Origin: an uncultured Oscillospiraceae bacterium
GTDB taxonomy: Bacteria > Bacillota > Clostridia > Christensenellales > CAG-314
Direction of reading: 5' to 3'
Assembly: GCA_964577535.1 (NCBI GenBank)
Contig: CAZNZO010000003.1
Location: 69,620 to 133,619, forward strand
Length of the DNA stretch: 64,000 bases
The position numbers and the translations under genes were made by a program. Below the pieces are notes generated by a model. It did not search any database, had not been told where the DNA came from, and saw only the letters and a list, made by a program, of their open reading frames with translations. Shown piece by piece: positions 14,992-40,822 of this stretch. Positions within the stretch are counted from its first letter, which is position 1. Each line of letters begins with the position of its first letter.

Positions 14992-17559
14992 ATGGGAAGA
15001 AGAGTTTTAGCCTTTTTCTTGGGAATGATTTTTGGCATAATATTCCTTTTGGGCAGTTTGGCACTGGGGATATATCTTGCCATAACCGTGATAAAGCCTA
15101 GCGACATAAGCGCAGATGCTTCCACATACATGGGGGATTTGGCCGACATGTCCTTGCTGGATATGGTGCAAAGCGTACAGCAACTTTACACCGAACAACT
15201 GGGGCTGACGGACGAAAACGGCGACTATTTTAGCTTGGGCGATTTTTTGGACAACTACAACATCAATTGCGAAACGGCGTTTGGCATAGCGTTGCCACAA
15301 TCGGTTTTGGACGTTCCTGTGTTTGAATATTTCAACGAGGGCAGTGTAGACAATGCCTTGCAACAAATAAGCGTGGCAACCCTTCCGGCAATAATCAACA
15401 TGTTTGCGACGGAAGAAGGCGGCTACATTAGTGCCGAAACAATGGAAAAGCTGGATGCTTTCACCATGAAAGACCTGTTTGACGGCGAAAAGGGCGTTAC
15501 CTACGTTTTTGACGACGTGCGTTTTGCCGATTTGCTGGCAAATTCCTTCCCGGCGGCCGATTCGGACAACAAATTTATGTGGGCCATTGGGCAAGGTCGC
15601 ATTGGCCGGCTTTACGGCGCGCTTAGCGGTTCGGAAAGTTTATTTATGCAACTGAAGGAGGACGGAGGATTATCCGACCTGGGCAGTTTGCCTGTTACGG
15701 AAGTTTTGGGCGGCAGTTCCGGCGTGCTGGGTGCCATGCTTGGCGATGCATCTTTGGGTAGCATGGTGGACGAAAACGGCGCATTGAACTTTGACCAAGT
15801 GCTTGAAAAGACCTACGTTGGAAGCTTGCTTGCTTGCATTCGCAACGAAATTGAAGACGTTAGCGGCTACACGGAGGTTGAACTGGAAGGCGACACTATT
15901 CTTGCAAAAACAGAAAACGGCAAAACGCTTTTTGCCAAGGCAGACGGTGAAAAACACTTTGAAGTTGTGCAATATTGCACGGTGAAAGACATTGAACACG
16001 TGCACGATGCAAGTTGCTACGACTTTGCTTGGTACAACTCGATGGCGTTATCGGCAGGACACTCCAATTGCAAAGATAACGAACTTATTGCCGAAGACGG
16101 ACACCACTCTCGCATAAGCGGCATATACAAGGCGCTTGTTAACCTTTACGTAAGCGATTTGATGGGCGGTTCTTCTGCCGTTATTATGGAAGGCATGCAA
16201 AACGTTACCATAAGCGAAATGATGGACGGCAAGGTTAGCGGAGTTATGGCTAACTTCAAGGATATGACCATCCATGAAATGCTTAATGGTGGCGTTGACG
16301 AAATTTATTTGGGCTCGTTTATTGGTTACACTCGCACCACGGCCACCAAGCCGCAAGAATTTGAAAAACTTGGCGACGTTTACTTGGGCAAGAACGGAGA
16401 TAGATACGTTATGTCCGAAGAGGGCGCCGATTGGTACAACGCAAAACTTATTTGCGAAAACACCGATGCTTCCCACAAACACAGCCGCAGTTGCTATTCC
16501 TACGAATGGATGAACGGCACAAAACCTGCCAAAGGCCTTATGGCGAAACTATCCGAAAGCAAACTGGGCGAACTTAGCAATTTGAACGACATTATTCTTT
16601 CTAGCACCGTTAGCGACGTTTTGGGGGATAACCTTACCGGCATTATGGCGGAGCTGAAAGATACTCCACTTAAAAATTTGTCGTCAGAAATGAACAACGT
16701 ATATTTGGGCGCAGCAATGAACTTCTACCGCAAGAGCGTGGACGTTGCCGGCTACTCGAAGGTGGACGGAATATCCAACCTTATGCAAAAGGACGGACAG
16801 TTTGCCAAGAGCGACGACGGCAAAAAATGGTACCTTGCGGAACTTGATTGCGACAAAGATCACACTCACACCGCCGCTTGCTACGCATACGTTTGGTATA
16901 AAAACGCCGCAAGAACCATTCCCGTTACCGGCGTGCAAAAATGTTTTGTGAACTCTAAGCTGGGCAACTTATCCTCCACCATGGACAACCTGACGTTGAA
17001 AAAGCTAAGAGTTGGCGGAAACACCATTTTAAATGCAATGGGCGACGTGCCGTTGATGGCGTTGAACACCCAAATGAAAGTGATGAAACTGGGCGTTGTT
17101 TTTGATTTTGTGGAAGACAAAACCAGCGGCGTTAGCGTTTGGTATGAGCGTTGCAAAACAGGTTGCGGACACTCGGCAGGCCAACACGTGCGTTTGGAAG
17201 GAGAAACAGGCTACTTCACACCGGCAAAAGGCATAAACGCAAAGATGGCAAACATGACACTTTCGAACCTTATGACTGGCCAAGGCATGACGAGCATTGT
17301 TAGCGAATTTACCGTACGTGAAATGCAAGATAGCGGCATACTTTCCTTCACGGAACAGGACGAATACAAACTGGACGTTATTTTTGATTCCACAGGGGAA
17401 TGTTCCCTTGCCGACTACTTTATGCAACGAGCAACAAACTCGGCGCTGACCGCAAAACAATACTATCAAAGCAAGCACGGCGACGACCAGACGACGCGCG
17501 GAGAGTGGAAAGACGTTAAGTTTTCGGTATTTTTCAAAAAACTGTTGCAAGCAATATAG
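14992..17559 (+). CDS. 855-aa membrane-anchored extracytoplasmic protein with repeated Cys/His modules (function unknown)
   Basis: GAGGTGA SD and one N-terminal TM helix (VLAFFLGMIFGIIFLLGSLALGIYLAI). There are three full internal modules ending in C-x(5-6)-H-x-H-x(3)-CY-x-[FY]-x-W. Confidence 0.85.
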   Translation: MGRRVLAFFLGMIFGIIFLLGSLALGIYLAITVIKPSDISADASTYMGDLADMSLLDMVQSVQQLYTEQLGLTDENGDYFSLGDFLDNYNINCETAFGIALPQSVLDVPVFEYFNEGSVDNALQQISVATLPAIINMFATEEGGYISAETMEKLDAFTMKDLFDGEKGVTYVFDDVRFADLLANSFPAADSDNKFMWAIGQGRIGRLYGALSGSESLFMQLKEDGGLSDLGSLPVTEVLGGSSGVLGAMLGDASLGSMVDENGALNFDQVLEKTYVGSLLACIRNEIEDVSGYTEVELEGDTILAKTENGKTLFAKADGEKHFEVVQYCTVKDIEHVHDASCYDFAWYNSMALSAGHSNCKDNELIAEDGHHSRISGIYKALVNLYVSDLMGGSSAVIMEGMQNVTISEMMDGKVSGVMANFKDMTIHEMLNGGVDEIYLGSFIGYTRTTATKPQEFEKLGDVYLGKNGDRYVMSEEGADWYNAKLICENTDASHKHSRSCYSYEWMNGTKPAKGLMAKLSESKLGELSNLNDIILSSTVSDVLGDNLTGIMAELKDTPLKNLSSEMNNVYLGAAMNFYRKSVDVAGYSKVDGISNLMQKDGQFAKSDDGKKWYLAELDCDKDHTHTAACYAYVWYKNAARTIPVTGVQKCFVNSKLGNLSSTMDNLTLKKLRVGGNTILNAMGDVPLMALNTQMKVMKLGVVFDFVEDKTSGVSVWYERCKTGCGHSAGQHVRLEGETGYFTPAKGINAKMANMTLSNLMTGQGMTSIVSEFTVREMQDSGILSFTEQDEYKLDVIFDSTGECSLADYFMQRATNSALTAKQYYQSKHGDDQTTRGEWKDVKFSVFFKKLLQAI

Positions 17560-26418: not shown

Positions 26419-26703
26419 ATGACGTTAAAACCGCTTTTTGACAAAGTAGTGGTCAAACAAATTGAAGAAAAAGAAGAAAAAGTCGGCGGAATTTTCCTTC
26501 CGACGGCGGCAAAAGAAAAACAAGAAATTGCAACCGTTGTTGCTGTTGGCGATGGCGGCATCGTGGATGGCAAGGAAGTTAAGATGGTTGTGAAAGTTGG
26601 CGACAAGGTGCTTTACAGCAAGTATGCCGGAAGTGAATTTAAAATTGACGGCGAAACGGTTACTATCATTAAGCAAAGCGACGTGCTTGCCATTGTTGAG
26701 TGA
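26419..26703 (+). CDS. groES: co-chaperonin GroES
   Basis: 94-aa ORF starting MTLKPLFDKVVVKQIEEKEEKVGGIFLP, with a GGAGG SD. Confidence 0.97.
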   Translation: MTLKPLFDKVVVKQIEEKEEKVGGIFLPTAAKEKQEIATVVAVGDGGIVDGKEVKMVVKVGDKVLYSKYAGSEFKIDGETVTIIKQSDVLAIVE

Positions 26704-26714
26704 TTTGGAGGTGA

Positions 26715-28343
<1,629 letters not shown>

Positions 28344-28384
28344 AACCAAGTTGGCAGCGTTGAAACACAGCAACACTAAACACG

Positions 28385-28419
28385 ACAAAGGACACCACTT
28401 TTGGTGCCCTTTGTTTTTT
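28385..28419 (+). terminator. groESL intrinsic terminator
   Basis: 13-bp stem (one A.C mismatch) between 28385-28397 and 28402-28414, a 4-nt loop, then TTTTT. Confidence 0.8.
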
Positions 28420-28501
28420 ATGGAGACAAGGCATTGCACATTTATTTTGCATTTGAGACAACCTTGCGTAGAAGAATTGGCCTTATTTAGTGAAAATATG
28501 C

Positions 28502-28530
28502 TTGAAATCGTTCGTTGATCGTAGTATAAT
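28502..28530 (+). promoter_or_regulatory. sigma-A promoter of the lipoprotein gene: TTGAAA-17-TATAAT
   Basis: The -35 is at 28502-28507 and the -10 at 28525-28530. A leader of about 150 nt follows, with two short hairpins. Confidence 0.6.
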
Positions 28531-28690
28531 GGAAATATAATAAATATATTGCACATGCAAAAGCAAAATTTTGTGCGGCAAAACGACAAGCATGCCGTGC
28601 AAACAAAAGTTTTTGCATCTCTGCAAAAATGCAAACCTCGGGTTTGCTAGGCGCCGAAAACATGCGCCACAATTTGGGAGGTAACTTCGA

Positions 28691-28870
28691 ATGAAAAAGA
28701 AAGTTTTGGTAGGCATTCTTGTTTTGGCACTGCTTTCCTGCGTGCTGTTTGCCTTTTCGGCATGCAAGGGCCAAGTTCCCGTTTACCAAGGGATGACCAT
28801 TTCCGACGCATCAACGCACAGAAACGCCCATGCTGCAAACGGCAACATGGTGCGCAGTCGTCAAGATTAG
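28691..28870 (+). pseudogene. 5' fragment of the large lipoprotein gene (signal peptide with lipobox), ending at an in-frame TAG
   Basis: GGGAGG SD. The fragment encodes MKKKVLVGILVLALLSCVLFAFSAC|KGQ... and is in the same frame as ORF 29000-31987. The only stop between them is TAG 28868-28870. Confidence 0.7.
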
Positions 28871-28999
28871 GAAACTGCACCTCTGCAACACCGTGAAGAT
28901 CCTTTTCATGGTGACCACACCGGCCGCGACGACGACCTAGATAAGGACAATCCCTTCCCCGATGAAGACCAAACAATCGAAGAAGAAATAAAGTCGTCG

Positions 29000-31987
29000 T
29001 TGAACGTTGTTGGCCCTGTGGACGACATCTACTACGCAACGCCCAACCAAGATATTTACATTAGCATTCACATAGACAACCCCGATAGCTACGAAATATT
29101 ATCTTTCACGCTTAACGGCAAAAAATACACCGGCTACATGTTCGAAGAAGGTTCGGACATGGAAACCATAATTCTTAAATACAACGTGGGCAATACTAGC
29201 GGCATTGTTAGCTACACCATTGATGCAATTAAATACGTGGACGGCACTGCCATTAAGGACGTTCTTATTGACGGCAACAAAACGGTTATGGCCGGCATAA
29301 AAACTCAAGATCAAATAACCGCAAAAATTAGCGATTTTGCCGTGGAAACCAACTCCGTTTCCCTTGAAGCATCGGTAAAAGACAATGACAACCTTGTGGA
29401 ATTTTCATCCGGCACGCTTAAAGCAGTGTTATACGACGGCGAAAACATTGTTGAAGAAAAAGATATTTCCGTTGGCAAAAACCAAGTTTCCTTCCAAAAC
29501 CTTGGCACAAACACAATCTACCAATATGCAATTGTTGGATTTTTCGATGACCTTTCTGGAAATGGCTTCCAAATGCACGTGTTGCACAAGGATGCTTTCT
29601 TTACCGATTCCGTTTTGCTTTTTGATAACGTCAAGGTTACGCAAACAGGCATAACTTTTGGCTTTGTTTGGCACAAAAACCATGCAGGCAAAACCCTTAC
29701 GTCCCTTTCGCTTTATCAAAACCAACAACTTGTGCAATCGCTACACGCCGATGCAACAAGCATAGAAAACTTGCTTTGCAACAACACATATCAACTTGTT
29801 GCAGAATATCCCAACGGCAATGCAACGGAAAGCATCAGCATAGAATTCACCACCATTGCCAAGGCAACGCCGCAAGTGGAAATTAGTGGCACGCCCACAC
29901 AAACCAGCATAGACTTTGCAATTGACGTGACGGATACCGACAGCGTTGGCTCCATTACGGATATTGAACTTATCCACGGAGAAGACGTTGTTTCGGCACA
30001 ATCCACCGACCTTCGCACTTTTGCAAACTTGCTTAGCAACAACGCATACACGGTGAAAGTTACCTACACATACAACTTGAACGACGGCGAAGGCGACCAC
30101 GCTTTGACCAAGCAATTTGATACCACCACCATTGCCAAGGCAACGCCGCAAGTGGAAATTAGCACCCCCGAAGCAGGTGAAAAAACTGTGACGGCGGAAT
30201 ACCAAATTTCCGATGCCGACAATATTTGCATTGTTGATTCGGTGAAGATTTTGCAAGGTGAAAACGAAATTGCAAAGAACGACGAAAAGAAAATTGATTT
30301 TGCAAACCTTAACTACTACACGGAATATACCATTGTTGTTGCCTACACCTACAATCTTAACGACGGAACTGGCGATCATAGCCAAACGGTGCAAAACGTT
30401 TTCAAAACATTGCCGTACCTGGAATTTGATTCGTGCAAGGTGATAAACACTTCGGCAGTTAGCGAAGGGGAAACAATATACATTCAGGCAACGCTAGATA
30501 ACCCTTGCGCGGCCACTCCCATAAGCGCAGTGGTTAACGGAAAAACCTATACCTGTGCAGGCTCCACCTCCACTAGCAAAGTTTATCTTGAAATTGTGAA
30601 TGACGGCCAATTTGAAGGTGGCGACACCACTTTGAGCGTTGAAAAAATCAACTTGCAATTGGATGGCAACCCCTACACAGTAAAGACAGAAAAAAACAAT
30701 TCCGGCACGGTGTTTATAAACGGCAAATTGGAAGTTGCATCTTTCCAATTGGTGAATGGCCAAGGCGAGGCTGTTGACTGGTGTTTTGGGGACGACAATT
30801 CCTACGTTCTTTTGACACTTAAAAACAAAACTGGATACAGCATTGACAGTGTTGTGGTCACAAGCGATTGGAGTGAAATGACTCTTACGCCAACCCGGAT
30901 TGACGACGAACACTACAAAATTGAGTATGACAAAAACTACGGTTGGAACGGATTGGAATTGAAATCCATAAGTTACCACAACGAATACCTTAGCAAAACA
31001 ATTGCCATTGGAGATTGCTATTCGAATTGGATGTACATCCTAGATAACCATGTTGAAGAAATTTCAACACGAGAACAGTTGTTGAACACAACTTACAACC
31101 GCTACCATGGCTACTACAAATTGACTGCCGATATTGATCTTGGCGGAATGGAATGGACAAATTTGGGCATGCTTGAAGGTGTGTTTGATGGAAACGGCCA
31201 CACCATATCCAACATGAGCAACGTTTCCACTATAACAGATACAAATGCTGTTATAGGATTGTTCAGCAGCGTAGTTGGCATTGTGCAAAACCTGAATATA
31301 GCGGACGTGACCGTGTTGATAACAGTGACTTCGACCACAGAATCCAGCTATGATGCATATTTTGGTGGAATTTTTGCGCGAAAGGATAACTACAGACGTG
31401 TTATCGTATCAAATTGCTCAGTTACGGGCGACATTGGCATAAAGAATACAACAAAAGGTGAAAGCAACGTCGGTGGAATTATCGGACATTATGCCTATTG
31501 CACCTACATGAATGTTAAAAATTGCAATGTGGACACATCCATAACAGTAAGTGAAAATAGCACATGCTCGGTTGGCGGTTTGATTGGCTATACTCATTAC
31601 GGTACAACTGCTGTTACTGATTGCGAAGCAAAAGTTGACGTTACTGTTAACGCAACTGAATACAGTTATGTTGGCGGTTTGATTGGCTATGCTGATGGAA
31701 CTACTACCGCAACTGATTGCGAAGCAAAAGTGAATATTGACGTGAAAAACGGCGATACACCCGCAGGAACTGCCGGTGGCATAATTGGGCTAGCCGATTG
31801 GTATTCAATATGCAATGTTAATAATTGCAACGTGCAGGGAACAATAAAAGCCGCAAATGCCGAAGTTATTGGCACAATGTCCCGCAACGTATCTAGTTTG
31901 GAATTCAAGAACAACCAGTGCGACGTTTATATTAACGGAACAAAAATAACAGAAATTGCCGACGAAACATATAAGTATCAACGATAA
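29000..31987 (+). CDS. large surface protein body: Ig-like tandem repeats plus C-terminal GLUG-motif repeats (continuation of the lipoprotein gene)
   Basis: 995-aa ORF. It has two ~92-aa tandem repeats (TIAKATPQVEIS...TYTYNLNDG.GDH) and a C-terminal ADIDLGGMEWTNLG..FDGNGHTISN followed by repeated VGGLIGY/GGIIG units. The ORF itself has no signal peptide. Confidence 0.85.
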   Translation: MNVVGPVDDIYYATPNQDIYISIHIDNPDSYEILSFTLNGKKYTGYMFEEGSDMETIILKYNVGNTSGIVSYTIDAIKYVDGTAIKDVLIDGNKTVMAGIKTQDQITAKISDFAVETNSVSLEASVKDNDNLVEFSSGTLKAVLYDGENIVEEKDISVGKNQVSFQNLGTNTIYQYAIVGFFDDLSGNGFQMHVLHKDAFFTDSVLLFDNVKVTQTGITFGFVWHKNHAGKTLTSLSLYQNQQLVQSLHADATSIENLLCNNTYQLVAEYPNGNATESISIEFTTIAKATPQVEISGTPTQTSIDFAIDVTDTDSVGSITDIELIHGEDVVSAQSTDLRTFANLLSNNAYTVKVTYTYNLNDGEGDHALTKQFDTTTIAKATPQVEISTPEAGEKTVTAEYQISDADNICIVDSVKILQGENEIAKNDEKKIDFANLNYYTEYTIVVAYTYNLNDGTGDHSQTVQNVFKTLPYLEFDSCKVINTSAVSEGETIYIQATLDNPCAATPISAVVNGKTYTCAGSTSTSKVYLEIVNDGQFEGGDTTLSVEKINLQLDGNPYTVKTEKNNSGTVFINGKLEVASFQLVNGQGEAVDWCFGDDNSYVLLTLKNKTGYSIDSVVVTSDWSEMTLTPTRIDDEHYKIEYDKNYGWNGLELKSISYHNEYLSKTIAIGDCYSNWMYILDNHVEEISTREQLLNTTYNRYHGYYKLTADIDLGGMEWTNLGMLEGVFDGNGHTISNMSNVSTITDTNAVIGLFSSVVGIVQNLNIADVTVLITVTSTTESSYDAYFGGIFARKDNYRRVIVSNCSVTGDIGIKNTTKGESNVGGIIGHYAYCTYMNVKNCNVDTSITVSENSTCSVGGLIGYTHYGTTAVTDCEAKVDVTVNATEYSYVGGLIGYADGTTTATDCEAKVNIDVKNGDTPAGTAGGIIGLADWYSICNVNNCNVQGTIKAANAEVIGTMSRNVSSLEFKNNQCDVYINGTKITEIADETYKYQR

Positions 31988-32017
31988 CGGCAACAATTCA
32001 ACCAAAAACGGAACAAC

Positions 32018-32058
32018 AATGCGACCCCAAAAGTGAAAAACTTTTGAGGTCGCATTTT
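32018..32058 (+). terminator. intrinsic terminator after the surface-protein gene
   Basis: 17-bp stem (one mismatch) between 32018-32034 and 32040-32056, loop GAAAA, and a short T-run. Confidence 0.75.
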
Positions 32059-32302
32059 GGTGTGTGTAGTTTCTTTATCAAAAAAAAATTGGTTTGTAAA
32101 CACGCTTGCCACAAACCACTTCAAAAATGAAAAACGGTTTGAGTTGGTGCGTAAAATAAAAGAAGCGATGCTGAAGCAGGCAAAAGAAAAGCCGCCAGGG
32201 GTTGTTGGCGGCTAAAAACGAGATACAATTATTACAAAACACGGTGGCCTAGGCGGACAGGCAATGTTTGTTCAATTGACGACGTGCTGAAATTGTCGAT
32301 TT

Positions 32303-32508: not shown

Positions 32509-33429
32509 CTAGTTCAATCCAACCTCTGCAAAAGGCAACGTGAAGTAGCACACCACGCCCAGCAAAACGCCTGCGGCATACATTATGCCAACGATGCCAA
32601 AGTTTTTCCAATTTTTATCCTTGAACAAAATTGCCAAAGCAATGCCGCTGTTGCTGACAAGGCCGGCAAGCATGGCGGAAAAACTGACGATGCCTTCGGT
32701 ATACATTCCGGTGATGACAACACTGCTTGCGCAGTTTGGAATGAGGCCGACCAGCGCCGTCAAAAAGCATTGGAAGAAGCCAAGTTTTGACGCAAACTGC
32801 GTGATAGGTTCGCCAACGTAGTGCAACAACAAGCCAAACACCGTGTTGACAACAAAAACATAGCAAAAGATTTTTAGCGTGTGCAACAATGGGTGTTTTG
32901 CAAAAGACCAAACTTTTTGCCAGCGAGTTTGCTGATGATTGTGTTCGTGATTGTGATCGTCGCTTTGCTGATCGTTGTTTTGGTGGATTTCGTGGTGGCA
33001 ACAGCCTGTTTCCGTTAGGGCATATTCGGTGGCCAAGGGGCGCTTATCGAAAAGGTTGATTAGGTACCCAAGCGCCACGGCATACAGCACTTTTACCACA
33101 AGCACAATCCACACAACGCCAACGGTTTTTTGATTGGTTAGCAAAATGGGCAGGGCTTCGTCGCTGGTGGCAACAAAAAACGCCACCAAAGTGCCCAATT
33201 TTAGGTATTTTTGGCAATACAGGTCGGTTGCCATAACGGAAAATCCGCATTGCGGAACAAGGCCTACGCCGCCTGCAACAAGGGGCGCAAACCTGCCGTT
33301 CAAAAGTTTTACCGTTTTGTTGCGAGCCGTTACGTTGGTTTCCAAAAATTCTATGAACAAATAGATTATCAACAGAAACGGGGCCGCAATGGCGCTATCT
33401 TTTAGCGCATCTAACACTACTTCCCACAT
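32509..33429 (-). CDS. putative 10-TM heavy-metal/manganese transporter (ArsP_2-like) with a His-rich loop
   Basis: The N-terminus MWEVVLDALKDSAIAAPFLLIIYLFIEFLE is typical of this family as I recall it. The loop reads CCHHEIHQNNDQQSDDHNHEHNHQQ. The start is set at ATG 33427-33429. Confidence 0.75.
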   Translation of the reverse strand: MWEVVLDALKDSAIAAPFLLIIYLFIEFLETNVTARNKTVKLLNGRFAPLVAGGVGLVPQCGFSVMATDLYCQKYLKLGTLVAFFVATSDEALPILLTNQKTVGVVWIVLVVKVLYAVALGYLINLFDKRPLATEYALTETGCCHHEIHQNNDQQSDDHNHEHNHQQTRWQKVWSFAKHPLLHTLKIFCYVFVVNTVFGLLLHYVGEPITQFASKLGFFQCFLTALVGLIPNCASSVVITGMYTEGIVSFSAMLAGLVSNSGIALAILFKDKNWKNFGIVGIMYAAGVLLGVVCYFTLPFAEVGLN

Positions 33430-33502
33430 ACTTTTTATGTTTTTTTTGAGGTGACGTTTTGCCACAGAAGGGCAAATGCGCAAGTGATTTTTTTGCGTTG
33501 AT

Positions 33503-33619
33503 GCCCAAATTGGCAAATTACCGAATGATTTTTGTTTTTACGTTTAGCCAAAAAATTGGCAAACTTGTTTGGCATTTTGGGGTTTTGGGACTTGGATTGA
33601 GCCAAAATTTGCAAATGCC
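33503..33619 (-). promoter_or_regulatory. three spaced copies of a GCCAA-N(2-4)-TTGGCAAA-type inverted repeat (candidate operator sites)
   Basis: gcccaaattggcaaat is at 33503, gccaaaaaattggcaaa at 33547 and gccaaaatttgcaaatgcc at 33601. They lie 75-190 nt upstream of the metal transporter start. Confidence 0.3.
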
Positions 33620-35758: not shown

Positions 35759-37354
35759 CTATTCGCCCTGCGAATCGTCGGAATTTTGTGCTTCACCGCT
35801 TGTTTGGAGCGCTGCTTTGCGTTTTGCCGCCTTTTTTTCCTTTTCCGGATCCACCCACGGCTTCAAATTTTCCACGCCAAAATCCTTATAAACTTTTGGC
35901 GGAAACACAAACAACAAAAAGCTGTTTAGCTTAACTTTTTTGTTGTTGCCGCATTGGCAAAGATATTGATCGTCAAATTGCGTTTTGGAAGTGCCGCGCA
36001 AATTTTTGAAGGCCGGCAGCAACAAGCAGTACACAACGGCCGCCAAACAAAGCACTGCCGCCACTGCCAAAACGTAGCCGTTGGCAATGCCATCCACAAC
36101 GCCCCACTTAACGCATGAGAACACGGCAAGGCCAAGCAATGCAATGCAAATTGCCAAATAGCACACCGTTTGCGTGAAATACTTTTCGTAATCCGTTTGC
36201 CAACCGCCGGCAGGCAAGTTGCGTGTGTTGCAATTTTGGCAATAGAGTTTTAGCCTGTCGCAAAGCGACCAAATGCCCAGCGCCGAATAGATGCTGATAA
36301 GCACGGAGAAAAATCCGGCAATGAATTTGGATTCGCCGCCCAGCGCAAACATGACGATGCCGAATGCCATTGTTACGACGGAAACGCCCAACAGCACCCA
36401 GCGAGAAGCGGAAAGCTGCTGGCGCTCGCTATGGAACAGTTTGCTATACAGCCCGTGCAATTGCTTGCGATAAATGCGAGAAAGCAACAACAATCCGAAA
36501 ATTATTGTGAACACCGAAACAAGCTGGGAAATTTTGATATCTGTTTCGCGCGCGCCAATGAACAAATACAAACTGTCGCTACGCATGCCTTCGATGATTA
36601 AACGAACAATGCCGTAGTAGATGCCATAGAATGCAGAACACCAGCCAAGTTTGTAGTGCTTGGAACGCATCAAAATGCAAACGCACACCAAAAAGCCAAT
36701 GAAGGTGCAAACACTTTCGTAAAAGAAGGTTGCTTGATACCAACCGGAGCCTTGGTTTCCGTTGGTAATCCAAACGGCTATTCCGTTGAAGCCGTGATCG
36801 GGGTTGCTGCCCCAAAAGTTGACCATATCGCCAAAGTTTTTGGTGATAAGGTTGCCGTAGGCTTCTTGGTTGGCAAAGTTGCCCCAGCGGCCAATGCTTT
36901 GCGCCAAAAACAGGCCGGGCATTACGCAATCGGCAACAATGCGGAAATCTTGCTTTTTGATTTTGCTACAAATAAATGCCGCAATGTAGCCAATAATAAC
37001 GCCGCCGTAGATTCCCAAACCGCCACTGCGGAAGTTGAAAAAGGTGGACCAATTGGAAGTTTGCCCGCTCCAGGGGAAAATGTAGACGTAGAGCCTTGCG
37101 CCCAAAACGCCGAACGGAATGATGACCAAGGCATAGATGGTTATGTCGTAGGGGTCGTAGCCGCGTTTTTTGAAGTAGATGCCACCCACCAAAATGGCCA
37201 AGCACATGCCTGTGACGATGATGAGCGCATAGAAATAGATGGGAACGCCAAAAATGCAAAGCGCAGGACGCCCCCATTGGGAACCAACACCAAAATAGGC
37301 GTTGCCCCAAACAAGAGTCATACTTGTGGAAATTTCGGAAAGTAGGTTAATCAA
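35759..37354 (-). CDS. lgt: prolipoprotein diacylglyceryl transferase with a ~250-aa C-terminal membrane/Cys-pair extension
   Basis: TTG start 6 nt after AGGAAGGAAC. The Lgt core includes GGLGIYGGVIG, GRWGNFANQEAYG and RLIIEGMRSDSL. Residues from about 285 to 531 form extra TM helices containing CQNC and CQCG. Confidence 0.85.
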   Translation of the reverse strand: MINLLSEISTSMTLVWGNAYFGVGSQWGRPALCIFGVPIYFYALIIVTGMCLAILVGGIYFKKRGYDPYDITIYALVIIPFGVLGARLYVYIFPWSGQTSNWSTFFNFRSGGLGIYGGVIIGYIAAFICSKIKKQDFRIVADCVMPGLFLAQSIGRWGNFANQEAYGNLITKNFGDMVNFWGSNPDHGFNGIAVWITNGNQGSGWYQATFFYESVCTFIGFLVCVCILMRSKHYKLGWCSAFYGIYYGIVRLIIEGMRSDSLYLFIGARETDIKISQLVSVFTIIFGLLLLSRIYRKQLHGLYSKLFHSERQQLSASRWVLLGVSVVTMAFGIVMFALGGESKFIAGFFSVLISIYSALGIWSLCDRLKLYCQNCNTRNLPAGGWQTDYEKYFTQTVCYLAICIALLGLAVFSCVKWGVVDGIANGYVLAVAAVLCLAAVVYCLLLPAFKNLRGTSKTQFDDQYLCQCGNNKKVKLNSFLLFVFPPKVYKDFGVENLKPWVDPEKEKKAAKRKAALQTSGEAQNSDDSQGE

Positions 37355-40769: not shown

Positions 40770-40822
40770 AAATAAAAATATTAGGGAGGGATAGTTTCGG
40801 CTATACCCCCCCCCACTTTTTT
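40770..40822 (-). terminator. G/C-rich hairpin terminator downstream of the SHOCT gene (T-runs on both strands)
   Basis: gggagggatag-tttcgg-ctataccccccc (40784-40814). The minus-strand RNA would be followed by UAAUAUUUUUAUUU. Confidence 0.55.

Follow-up and report, generated by a model that had tools for sequence, protein, structure and literature searches.

A probable recent nonsense mutation in a strain-variable surface lipoprotein gene of an uncultured Oscillospiraceae bacterium

Introduction

The rpoS gene of Escherichia coli K-12, which encodes a regulator, has an amber allele (codon 33) that is polymorphic among stocks and keeps partial function through internal re-initiation or suppressors. 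The locus described here resembles it in having a single 5′ TAG in a gene that is otherwise intact, in being polymorphic between close strains, and in having a sense codon at that site in siblings; neither re-initiation nor suppression is in evidence here. A second parallel is inlA of Listeria monocytogenes, for which several independent natural premature-stop-codon (PMSC) alleles are described (PMC12427964, PMC5131979). In both cases a large Gram-positive surface protein gene carries independent nonsense alleles within one species with the rest of the ORF kept; inlA is intact in some strains, and here relatives are intact while no intact conspecific allele was observed. The PMSCs of inlA mostly remove the C-terminal LPXTG anchor and a secreted fragment is still made (PMC12427964, PMC5131979), whereas here the stops are at codons 17 and 60 and leave the entire body cut off from the export signal. 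The proteins differ too: inlA encodes an LRR internalin, the present gene a predicted lipoprotein with Ig/FN3-like and GLUG domains.

Other known systems share single features with the locus. Pyrrolysine insertion and programmed UAG readthrough also present an in-frame TAG followed by an open homologous frame, but the TAG here is non-conserved and is the dominant stop, and neither pyl nor tRNA genes occur in the window (the whole 64,000-nucleotide stretch that was analysed; the features of the locus described below lie on its forward strand). As at phase-variable contingency loci, the expression state of a surface protein differs between close strains; the changes seen here, however, are substitutions of one base, which only back-mutation or recombination between alleles could reverse. 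The protein shares a Glug match with the GLUG-motif proteins (PF07581) and an N-terminal module with related Clostridia lipoproteins, in which that module is joined to other C-terminal domains (M23 peptidase, LRR_5, fn3, Flg_new). We know of no member of this family that has been characterised experimentally.

Results

The gene starts at the ATG at 28691-28693, which opens a 59-codon lipoprotein signal ORF closed by a TAG at 28868-28870. Beyond the TAG a further 1038 codons are open, in phase with the ATG, as far as the TAA at 31985-31987; the first 43 of them precede the TTG at 29000, from which the annotated 995-residue remnant ORF (P0001, 29000-31987) begins with neither a Shine-Dalgarno sequence nor a signal peptide. 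Ahead of the ATG are a GGGAGG Shine-Dalgarno sequence (28676-28681, nine-nucleotide spacer) and a sigma-70-like promoter, TTGAAA-17-TATAAT (28502-28530); with 11 of 12 positions matching, it scores highest among the promoter-like sites within 28300-32300. The 160-nt 5′ UTR gave no significant match in Rfam. A terminator-like hairpin (32013-32061; 22-nt arms, 86% complementary) follows the TAA and, like the promoter, lies within the variable cassette described below. Between the TAG and 29400 we found no in-frame start codon with a good Shine-Dalgarno sequence: the ATG at 29159 has only a weak AAGG 7 nt upstream, and the TTG at 29000 and the GTG at 29018 have none. Every sequence statement of the original prediction, from the start codon, Shine-Dalgarno sequence and promoter to the open frame ending at 31987, was therefore confirmed, as was its description of the 995-residue body as devoid of an export signal and having only a TTG start with no Shine-Dalgarno sequence.

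Direct reading of 28691-28765 gives a lipoprotein signal peptide with an MKKK n-region, a hydrophobic core and an FSAC lipobox ending at Cys25 (28763-28765); the product of the signal ORF starts MKKKVLVGILVLALLSCVLFAFSAC. Lipoprotein precursors follow a rule (PROSITE PS51257) of a charged n-region, a hydrophobic h-region and a lipobox [LVIF..][AST..][AGS]C with the Cys at 15-35. The arrangement MKKK, VLVGILVLALLSCVLFAF, S-A-C25 satisfies this pattern, and the product is a predicted lipoprotein. The modification machinery is present, as an Lgt gene lies within the window (ORF 35759-37354; Pfam LGT, E = 6.5e-50). The 43 codons after the TAG had been thought to look like a genuine linker, and alignment agrees: they encode an acidic post-lipobox linker, predicted to be disordered (28871-28999; homologous to the linker of intact relatives, GDHTGRDDDLDKDNPFPD..IEEEIKSSLNVVG).

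The 995-residue body is predicted to fold as an array of Ig/FN3-like β-sandwich domains followed by a C-terminal β-rich GLUG region, with pLDDT below 50 for residues 1-35. Pfam Glug (PF07581) matches two stretches at 40.1 bits, above the gathering threshold (cut-off 20.5), and the best-scoring motif covers residues 931-956 (31661-31738). A PDB sequence search with the protein found no relative, and a Foldseek search with the predicted body returned generic Ig/FN3 arrays only. On the predicted fold, the Ig/FN3-like array and GLUG region are an extracellular architecture that would require export. A repeat scan also located an exact 39-nt direct repeat internal to the gene (29848-29886 and 30124-30162), at which short-read contigs break (ends at 29877/29886 and 30133).

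Homologues of the protein are encoded by single ORFs that run from signal peptide and lipobox through a VPVYQGM motif and an acidic linker to the body. About 90 of 119 have the lipobox near residue 25 followed by VP[VI]YQGM, and the signal peptide, the motif, the acidic linker and an Ig-like stalk are common to hundreds of MAG proteins. In a related species (L008), the positional orthologue, located between groEL and ArsP_2, is likewise one ORF with its own signal peptide. Neither it nor any of 18 aligned homologues has a stop at the codon-60 site. Because the homologues and the positional orthologue are single ORFs, we conclude that the TAG splits one gene; orthologues organised as two separate genes, which would have spoken against the original prediction, were not seen. 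Nor is the two-ORF arrangement a matter of chance, since the residues flanking the TAG align to continuous ORFs in the homologues. Recurrent N-terminal truncation in the family was considered and rejected: two homologues are without a signal peptide, but in P0002 the gene caller placed the start wrongly, an intact MKKK...AC signal being present in frame upstream of it, and P0025 begins at a contig end.

The TAG was reproduced in the Logan assemblies of two runs, SRR14160763 and SRR14160767, with 100% identity over 7196 and 2935 bp. A third run, SRR14160758, has a sequence 99.8% identical overall to the window with TGG (Trp) at codon 60; it has instead a TGA at codon 17 (28739-28741, TGC for Cys in the window), inside the signal peptide. 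This Cys is conserved among the closest homologues (LLSCTLF in P0123, MLACTLL in L008). The population variation at 28868-28870 that the original prediction proposed to look for is thus seen between assemblies, and premature stops are polymorphic at the locus: W60amber in the window, SRR14160763 and SRR14160767, and C17opal in SRR14160758, with relatives intact. The stops of the two null alleles sit 128 bp apart. All four SRR141607xx runs (SRR14160758, -763, -767 and -769) are probably from a single study, and the samples may therefore not be fully independent; a literature search on the SRR accessions gave no match. The sibling contig (L005) covers the 5′ third of the gene only (396 codons), and its codons 17 and 60 were phased by a de Bruijn assembler, so the contig may be a mosaic if strains co-occur.

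Apart from the TAG, no lesion is found across the 1098 codons of the gene. The two alleles differ by four nonsynonymous and four synonymous changes (pN/pS ~0.27), and therefore most of their divergence was built up under constraint. Ten SNPs cluster in the 5′ 1.1 kb of the gene, in a divergent patch that extends over groES, groEL and the intergenic region and looks like a recombination tract. We rejected a diversity-generating retroelement or other targeted mutagenesis, as the substitutions are not adenine-specific and the patch spans groES, groEL and the intergenic region as well. No intact conspecific allele was found by protein search (best match 62% identity), in the metagenome-contig scan (best match 58%) or in the genome-contig scan, where ArsP_2 of the nearest relative is 89% identical at the amino-acid level. 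Partial products of other alleles did not turn up in the protein search either. The population may nevertheless also contain an intact TGC-TGG haplotype.

Comparison of Logan contigs with the window (blastn) places the gene in a strain-variable cassette of 3.76 kb (28423-32186), which comprises the promoter, the surface lipoprotein gene and the terminator. The whole cassette is missing from conspecific strains (96-97.6% identity) in six other runs, with identical breakpoints at 28422/28423 and 32187 (contigs L003/L040, L043, L045, L046, L048 and L049). In conspecific 'group II' strains, ~360 bp of unrelated sequence stands in its place, and a sister species (L006) is also without 28423-32186. 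The sibling null allele and the conspecific strains without the cassette show that the gene is dispensable and variable within the species.

Discussion

We conclude, with a probability of about 0.85, that a real G-to-A change has recently turned the TGG of Trp60 into TAG, a nonsense mutation in a large, single-copy surface lipoprotein gene of the accessory kind. A fresh nonsense pseudogene was among the options originally listed, and it is the one that is supported: the sibling strain has TGG as codon 60, and all 1038 codons after the TAG are intact. The locus is a recent loss-of-function allele in an accessory gene that has at least two independent null alleles as well as presence/absence variation. 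Because the sibling has a different early stop and other strains are without the gene, we regard this as ordinary gene loss and not recoding. RF1 would terminate after residue 59, and the product left would be the signal peptide and a 34-residue stub. The 1038-codon extracellular body would be untranslated, or weakly re-initiated and kept in the cytoplasm without an export signal. With such a stub and a body that is not exported, the strain would be functionally null, and the protein is presumably absent from it.

Past the TAG the in-phase frame stays open and the linker resembles a real one, as would suit amber readthrough, pyrrolysine insertion or suppressor decoding to give a full-length lipoprotein, but the remaining evidence makes this extremely improbable. 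TAG is the commonest stop in the window, ending 22 of 46 likely genes (groEL included), a count that also disposes of genome-wide TAG reassignment. The conservation of the TAG expected for UAG recoding is lacking: the codon is TGG in SRR14160758, no homologue has a stop there, and the TAG sits in a non-conserved, disordered linker. The sibling allele has TGA elsewhere, beyond the reach of any amber mechanism. No tRNA gene was found within the 64-kb window, and no stimulatory RNA structure was evident 3′ of the TAG (fold of 28850-28970, z = -1.06; no Rfam match). Selenocysteine at the sibling TGA was likewise rejected, as that codon falls within the signal peptide's hydrophobic core and TGA serves as a normal stop here (9 of 46 likely genes). 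That the codon is really a sense codon, misread through assembly or base-call error, is a natural worry for a metagenome-assembled genome whose 995-residue product is the single member of its 90% protein cluster. We consider it very improbable, as two separate runs assemble the same TAG; moreover, the third run has TGG at this codon, so that the data do resolve the base. Internal initiation at TTG 29000, GTG 29018 or ATG 29159, yielding a protein that has no signal peptide and serves some new or remaining function, would make use of the intact 1038 codons and of the weak AAGG before ATG 29159. An intact ORF is, however, expected anyway for a recent mutation, TTG 29000 and GTG 29018 have no Shine-Dalgarno sequence, the predicted architecture is extracellular, and the sibling allele is broken at another place; we judge this reading improbable.

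A refinement of the nonsense-mutation reading is that the knock-out is adaptive and convergent, with selection repeatedly favouring loss of export and so producing a population-level on/off surface antigen. Candidate pressures would be avoidance of a phage receptor, host antibody, some other surface-directed pressure, or the cost of a 1100-residue surface protein. Two different nonsense mutations fall in the first 60 of 1098 codons, both abolish export while leaving the body intact, and there are gene-absent strains besides. Codons 1-60 hold 4.9% of the single-base paths to a stop (15% of those within the 396 codons visible in L005), which gives a joint chance of ~0.0075, although only two alleles are known and ascertainment is biased, the case having been flagged for its N-terminal stop and L005 covering the 5′ third alone. 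A dispensable accessory gene that decays neutrally would be expected to show this pattern too, and we treat the adaptive reading as possible but tentative. The more specific proposal, that the gut population is under repeated selection for export loss, with independent early nonsense hits and cassette loss together making up a mutational on/off surface antigen, seems to us rather doubtful; under it, the two null alleles would act as a population-level off state because their lesions are only 128 bp apart, and function could come back through one recombination event or the reversion of one base. The on/off surface antigen of the original prediction survives only in part, in that the gene is highly variable (two null alleles, gene-absent strains) but no switching device was found. 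Both stops and their surroundings are free of homopolymers and short tandem repeats, and we found no inverted repeats flanking the promoter or other invertible element. Since there is neither a repeat tract nor an invertible DNA segment, the locus does not qualify as a phase-variable contingency locus, and its variation consists of ordinary point mutation and an indel.

In annotation, the 59- and 995-residue ORFs are best joined and labelled as a single pseudogene. The main value of the analysis is a clean negative, as an in-frame TAG that resembles recoding is an ordinary null allele, and a comparison of publicly available sibling-strain assemblies was enough to show this without reads. Between groEL and ArsP_2 lies a strain-variable slot that carries, in this Clostridia lineage, a surface lipoprotein which evolves fast, and the locus offers one small, testable case of possibly convergent surface-protein loss in a gut commensal population.

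Structure of the split gene

Direct reading of the sequence confirms the arrangement described in the original prediction, namely a promoter, an SD, a signal ORF, a TAG and a continuing open frame. The near-consensus promoter TTGAAA-17-TATAAT (28502-28530, + strand) agrees with the consensus at 11 of 12 bases, better than any other site within 28300-32300. The SD GGGAGG (28676-28681, + strand) lies about 160 nt 3' of it, with 9-nt spacing to ATG 28691. The leader of about 160 nt (28531-28690) contains many repeats of the motif TGCAAA/TTTGCA and has no Rfam match. From the ATG, the ORF MKKKVLVGILVLALLSCVLFAFSAC... runs for 59 codons to TAG 28868-28870, and its sequence reads as a textbook lipoprotein signal with the lipidation residue at Cys25; Lgt is encoded 4 kb away. 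Beyond the TAG, the same frame is open for 1038 codons (the body) up to TAA 31985-31987. TTG 29000, the first start codon past the TAG, yields a 995-aa product that is 100% identical to P0001 in the public NCBI record, and a convincing SD is absent at every in-frame start across the next 500 nt.

The conceptually fused protein, used as a query, gave hundreds of relatives in Clostridia MAGs, and about 90 of the 119 other listed matches are single ORFs in which VP[VI]YQGM follows a lipobox at about residue 25. In an alignment of 18 N-termini, QVPVYQGMTIS (5' of the TAG) and GDHTGRDDDLDKDNPFPD..IEEEIKSSLNVVG (3' of the TAG) both map to one continuous protein, and the TAG falls in a low-complexity linker of variable length. 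Judged by this homology, the segments on either side of the TAG belong to one gene, not two. Two apparent homologues without a signal peptide proved to be artefacts: P0025 begins at a contig end, and P0002 (contig L029, 1930-2182), the closest full-length homologue, has a mis-called start, its public gene call beginning some 85 codons late and losing a lipoprotein signal that is intact upstream as an in-frame MKKK...AC.

The body contains Pfam Glug (40.1 bits; cut-off 20.5). In an AlphaFold model of the 1038 residues (25-sequence alignment, mean pLDDT 81.6), the first 35, which form the linker immediately after the TAG, are disordered and are followed by a long series of beta-sandwich domains and a beta-rich C-terminal region with the GLUG motifs. 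Foldseek matches are generic Ig/FN3 arrays only (titin, receptor ectodomains and a Bacillus S-layer protein), and a sequence search of the PDB found no relative. The modelled architecture is that of an extracellular protein, which would be useless without export. Relatives P0128-P0242 carry the same N-terminal module (signal peptide, VPVYQGM, acidic linker and first Ig-like domains) before other C-terminal domains, which in many Clostridia MAG proteins include M23 peptidase, LRR_5, fn3 and Flg_new; the module appears to act as a general-purpose stalk for surface display. We note that an 855-aa ORF elsewhere in the window (14992-17559, + strand) has an N-terminal transmembrane segment, no Pfam match and a Cys/His motif that occurs three times, as HVHDASCYDFAWYN, HKHSRSCYSYEWMN and HTHTAACYAYVWYKN.

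Alleles and strains

Exact look-up of the 59-aa product returned three contigs, the NCBI one and the Logan assemblies of SRR14160763 and SRR14160767, the latter two aligning to the window at 100% identity along 7196 and 2935 bp, respectively, TAG included. Because both reproduce the TAG, these assemblies make an assembler artefact very unlikely; an exact 39-nt repeat within the gene (29848-29886 and 30124-30162) accounts for where both contigs break. Exact look-up of GroEL led to a contig from a third run, L005 (SRR14160758), which is 99.8% identical (15 substitutions in 7623 bp). Here, 28869 is G, so that codon 60 is TGG (Trp), and 28741 is A, so that codon 17, TGC (Cys), becomes TGA; the gene call begins at the GTG immediately after. 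As the closest homologues, P0123 and the orthologue in L008 (a contig of a related species), also have Cys at this position, TGC17 is ancestral, and we infer an intact ancestor with TGC17 and TGG60 from which one substitution, at a different site in each case, gives either observed allele. With TGG60 and TGA17 together in L005, the phase across 128 bp being that of a de Bruijn assembly, the comparison excludes that the TAG is used in a conserved or programmed way and shows two independent null alleles.

All 15 SNPs lie within 26583-29760 (3.2 kb), a stretch that takes in groES and groEL, the intergenic region and the first third of the gene, with zero differences over the 4.3 kb upstream; the last 1855 bp of the gene (30133-31987) are identical across SRR14160758, -767 and -769. 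This distribution suggests a recombination tract with its centre at the left edge of a variable cassette. In the first 1.2 kb of the gene, the two alleles differ by 4 synonymous, 4 nonsynonymous and 2 nonsense changes. With the stops set aside, pN/pS is about 0.27, so most of the divergence arose under constraint, and the stops are recent.

Strains of the species were grouped by exact look-up of DivIVA and blastn. Group I (SRR14160758, -763, -767 and -769; about 100% identity) has the gene, and group II (SRR20681298, SRR22923245, -246, -247, SRR14399407 and -409; 96-97.6% identity) has about 360 bp in place of 28423-32186 (promoter, gene and terminator), with identical breakpoints. A sister species, L006 (about 92% nucleotide identity), is also without the gene, and its slot weakly resembles the group II filler. 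Because these genomes lack it, the gene is accessory. The order DivIVA, ArsP_2, slot, groEL, groES is kept in 23 related MAGs (species-representative genomes scanned with the ArsP_2 protein), among which the slot is filled by a family member in L008 alone, as one ORF beginning MMKKKLFVSIIVAAMLACTLLTFAAC..KQVPVYQGM. Related MAGs with this Clostridia-type synteny (L009, L019, L010 and L013) bear the names 'Corallococcus sp.' or 'Candidatus Fimimonas', which the NCBI taxonomy copy puts in Myxococcaceae, and are probably mislabelled. The ArsP_2 call (32509-33516, - strand) differs in length: group I strains have 335 aa, L003/L040 have 334 aa and the remaining group II contigs (L043, L045, L046, L048 and L049) have 367 aa; a histidine-rich loop or the start varies among strains. 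Two homopolymers differ in otherwise identical assemblies, C9 between two convergent genes (40806-40814; two C shorter in L041, SRR14160767) and T8 near the 5' end of the ArsP_2 ORF (33440-33447; one T shorter in L044, SRR22923250), which could be assembly noise or slippage.

Discussion

Programmed decoding of UAG would have made the split frame a single functional gene. The TAG at codon 60 is polymorphic, TAG is the main stop in the window (22 of 46 likely genes, groEL included, against 15 TAA and 9 TGA), and the RNA 3' of codon 60 folds no better than shuffled sequences (z = -1.06), and we have rejected this explanation. Rfam gave nothing significant over 28300-29100, and the window contains no tRNA genes. 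That TAG is the commonest stop among the likely genes of the window is atypical of a Firmicute-like genome with 45% GC. Classical phase variation also failed, as neither a simple-sequence tract nor inverted repeats flanking the promoter were found.

We therefore favour simple loss of function. Translation would terminate at codon 60 to leave only the signal peptide and a short stub; the body would then not be displayed and the strain would be phenotypically null. The gene has a polymorphic stop codon and a second null allele, is absent from some strains and is intact in relatives. Its loss may have been adaptive or neutral. Codons 1-60, in which both stops are located, account for 4.9% of the single-base changes that would create a stop (joint chance about 0.0075, given L005 coverage); however, there are two alleles only and their ascertainment is biased, so the data are only suggestive of adaptive loss. 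The closest analogue is inlA of Listeria monocytogenes, for which a set of natural premature-stop alleles is described (PMC12427964, PMC5131979), and the split gene is a fresh instance of an already known kind of event. In annotation, the 59-aa and 995-aa ORFs should be merged as one pseudogene, and the locus is an example of an apparent recoding signal resolved through sibling-strain assemblies.
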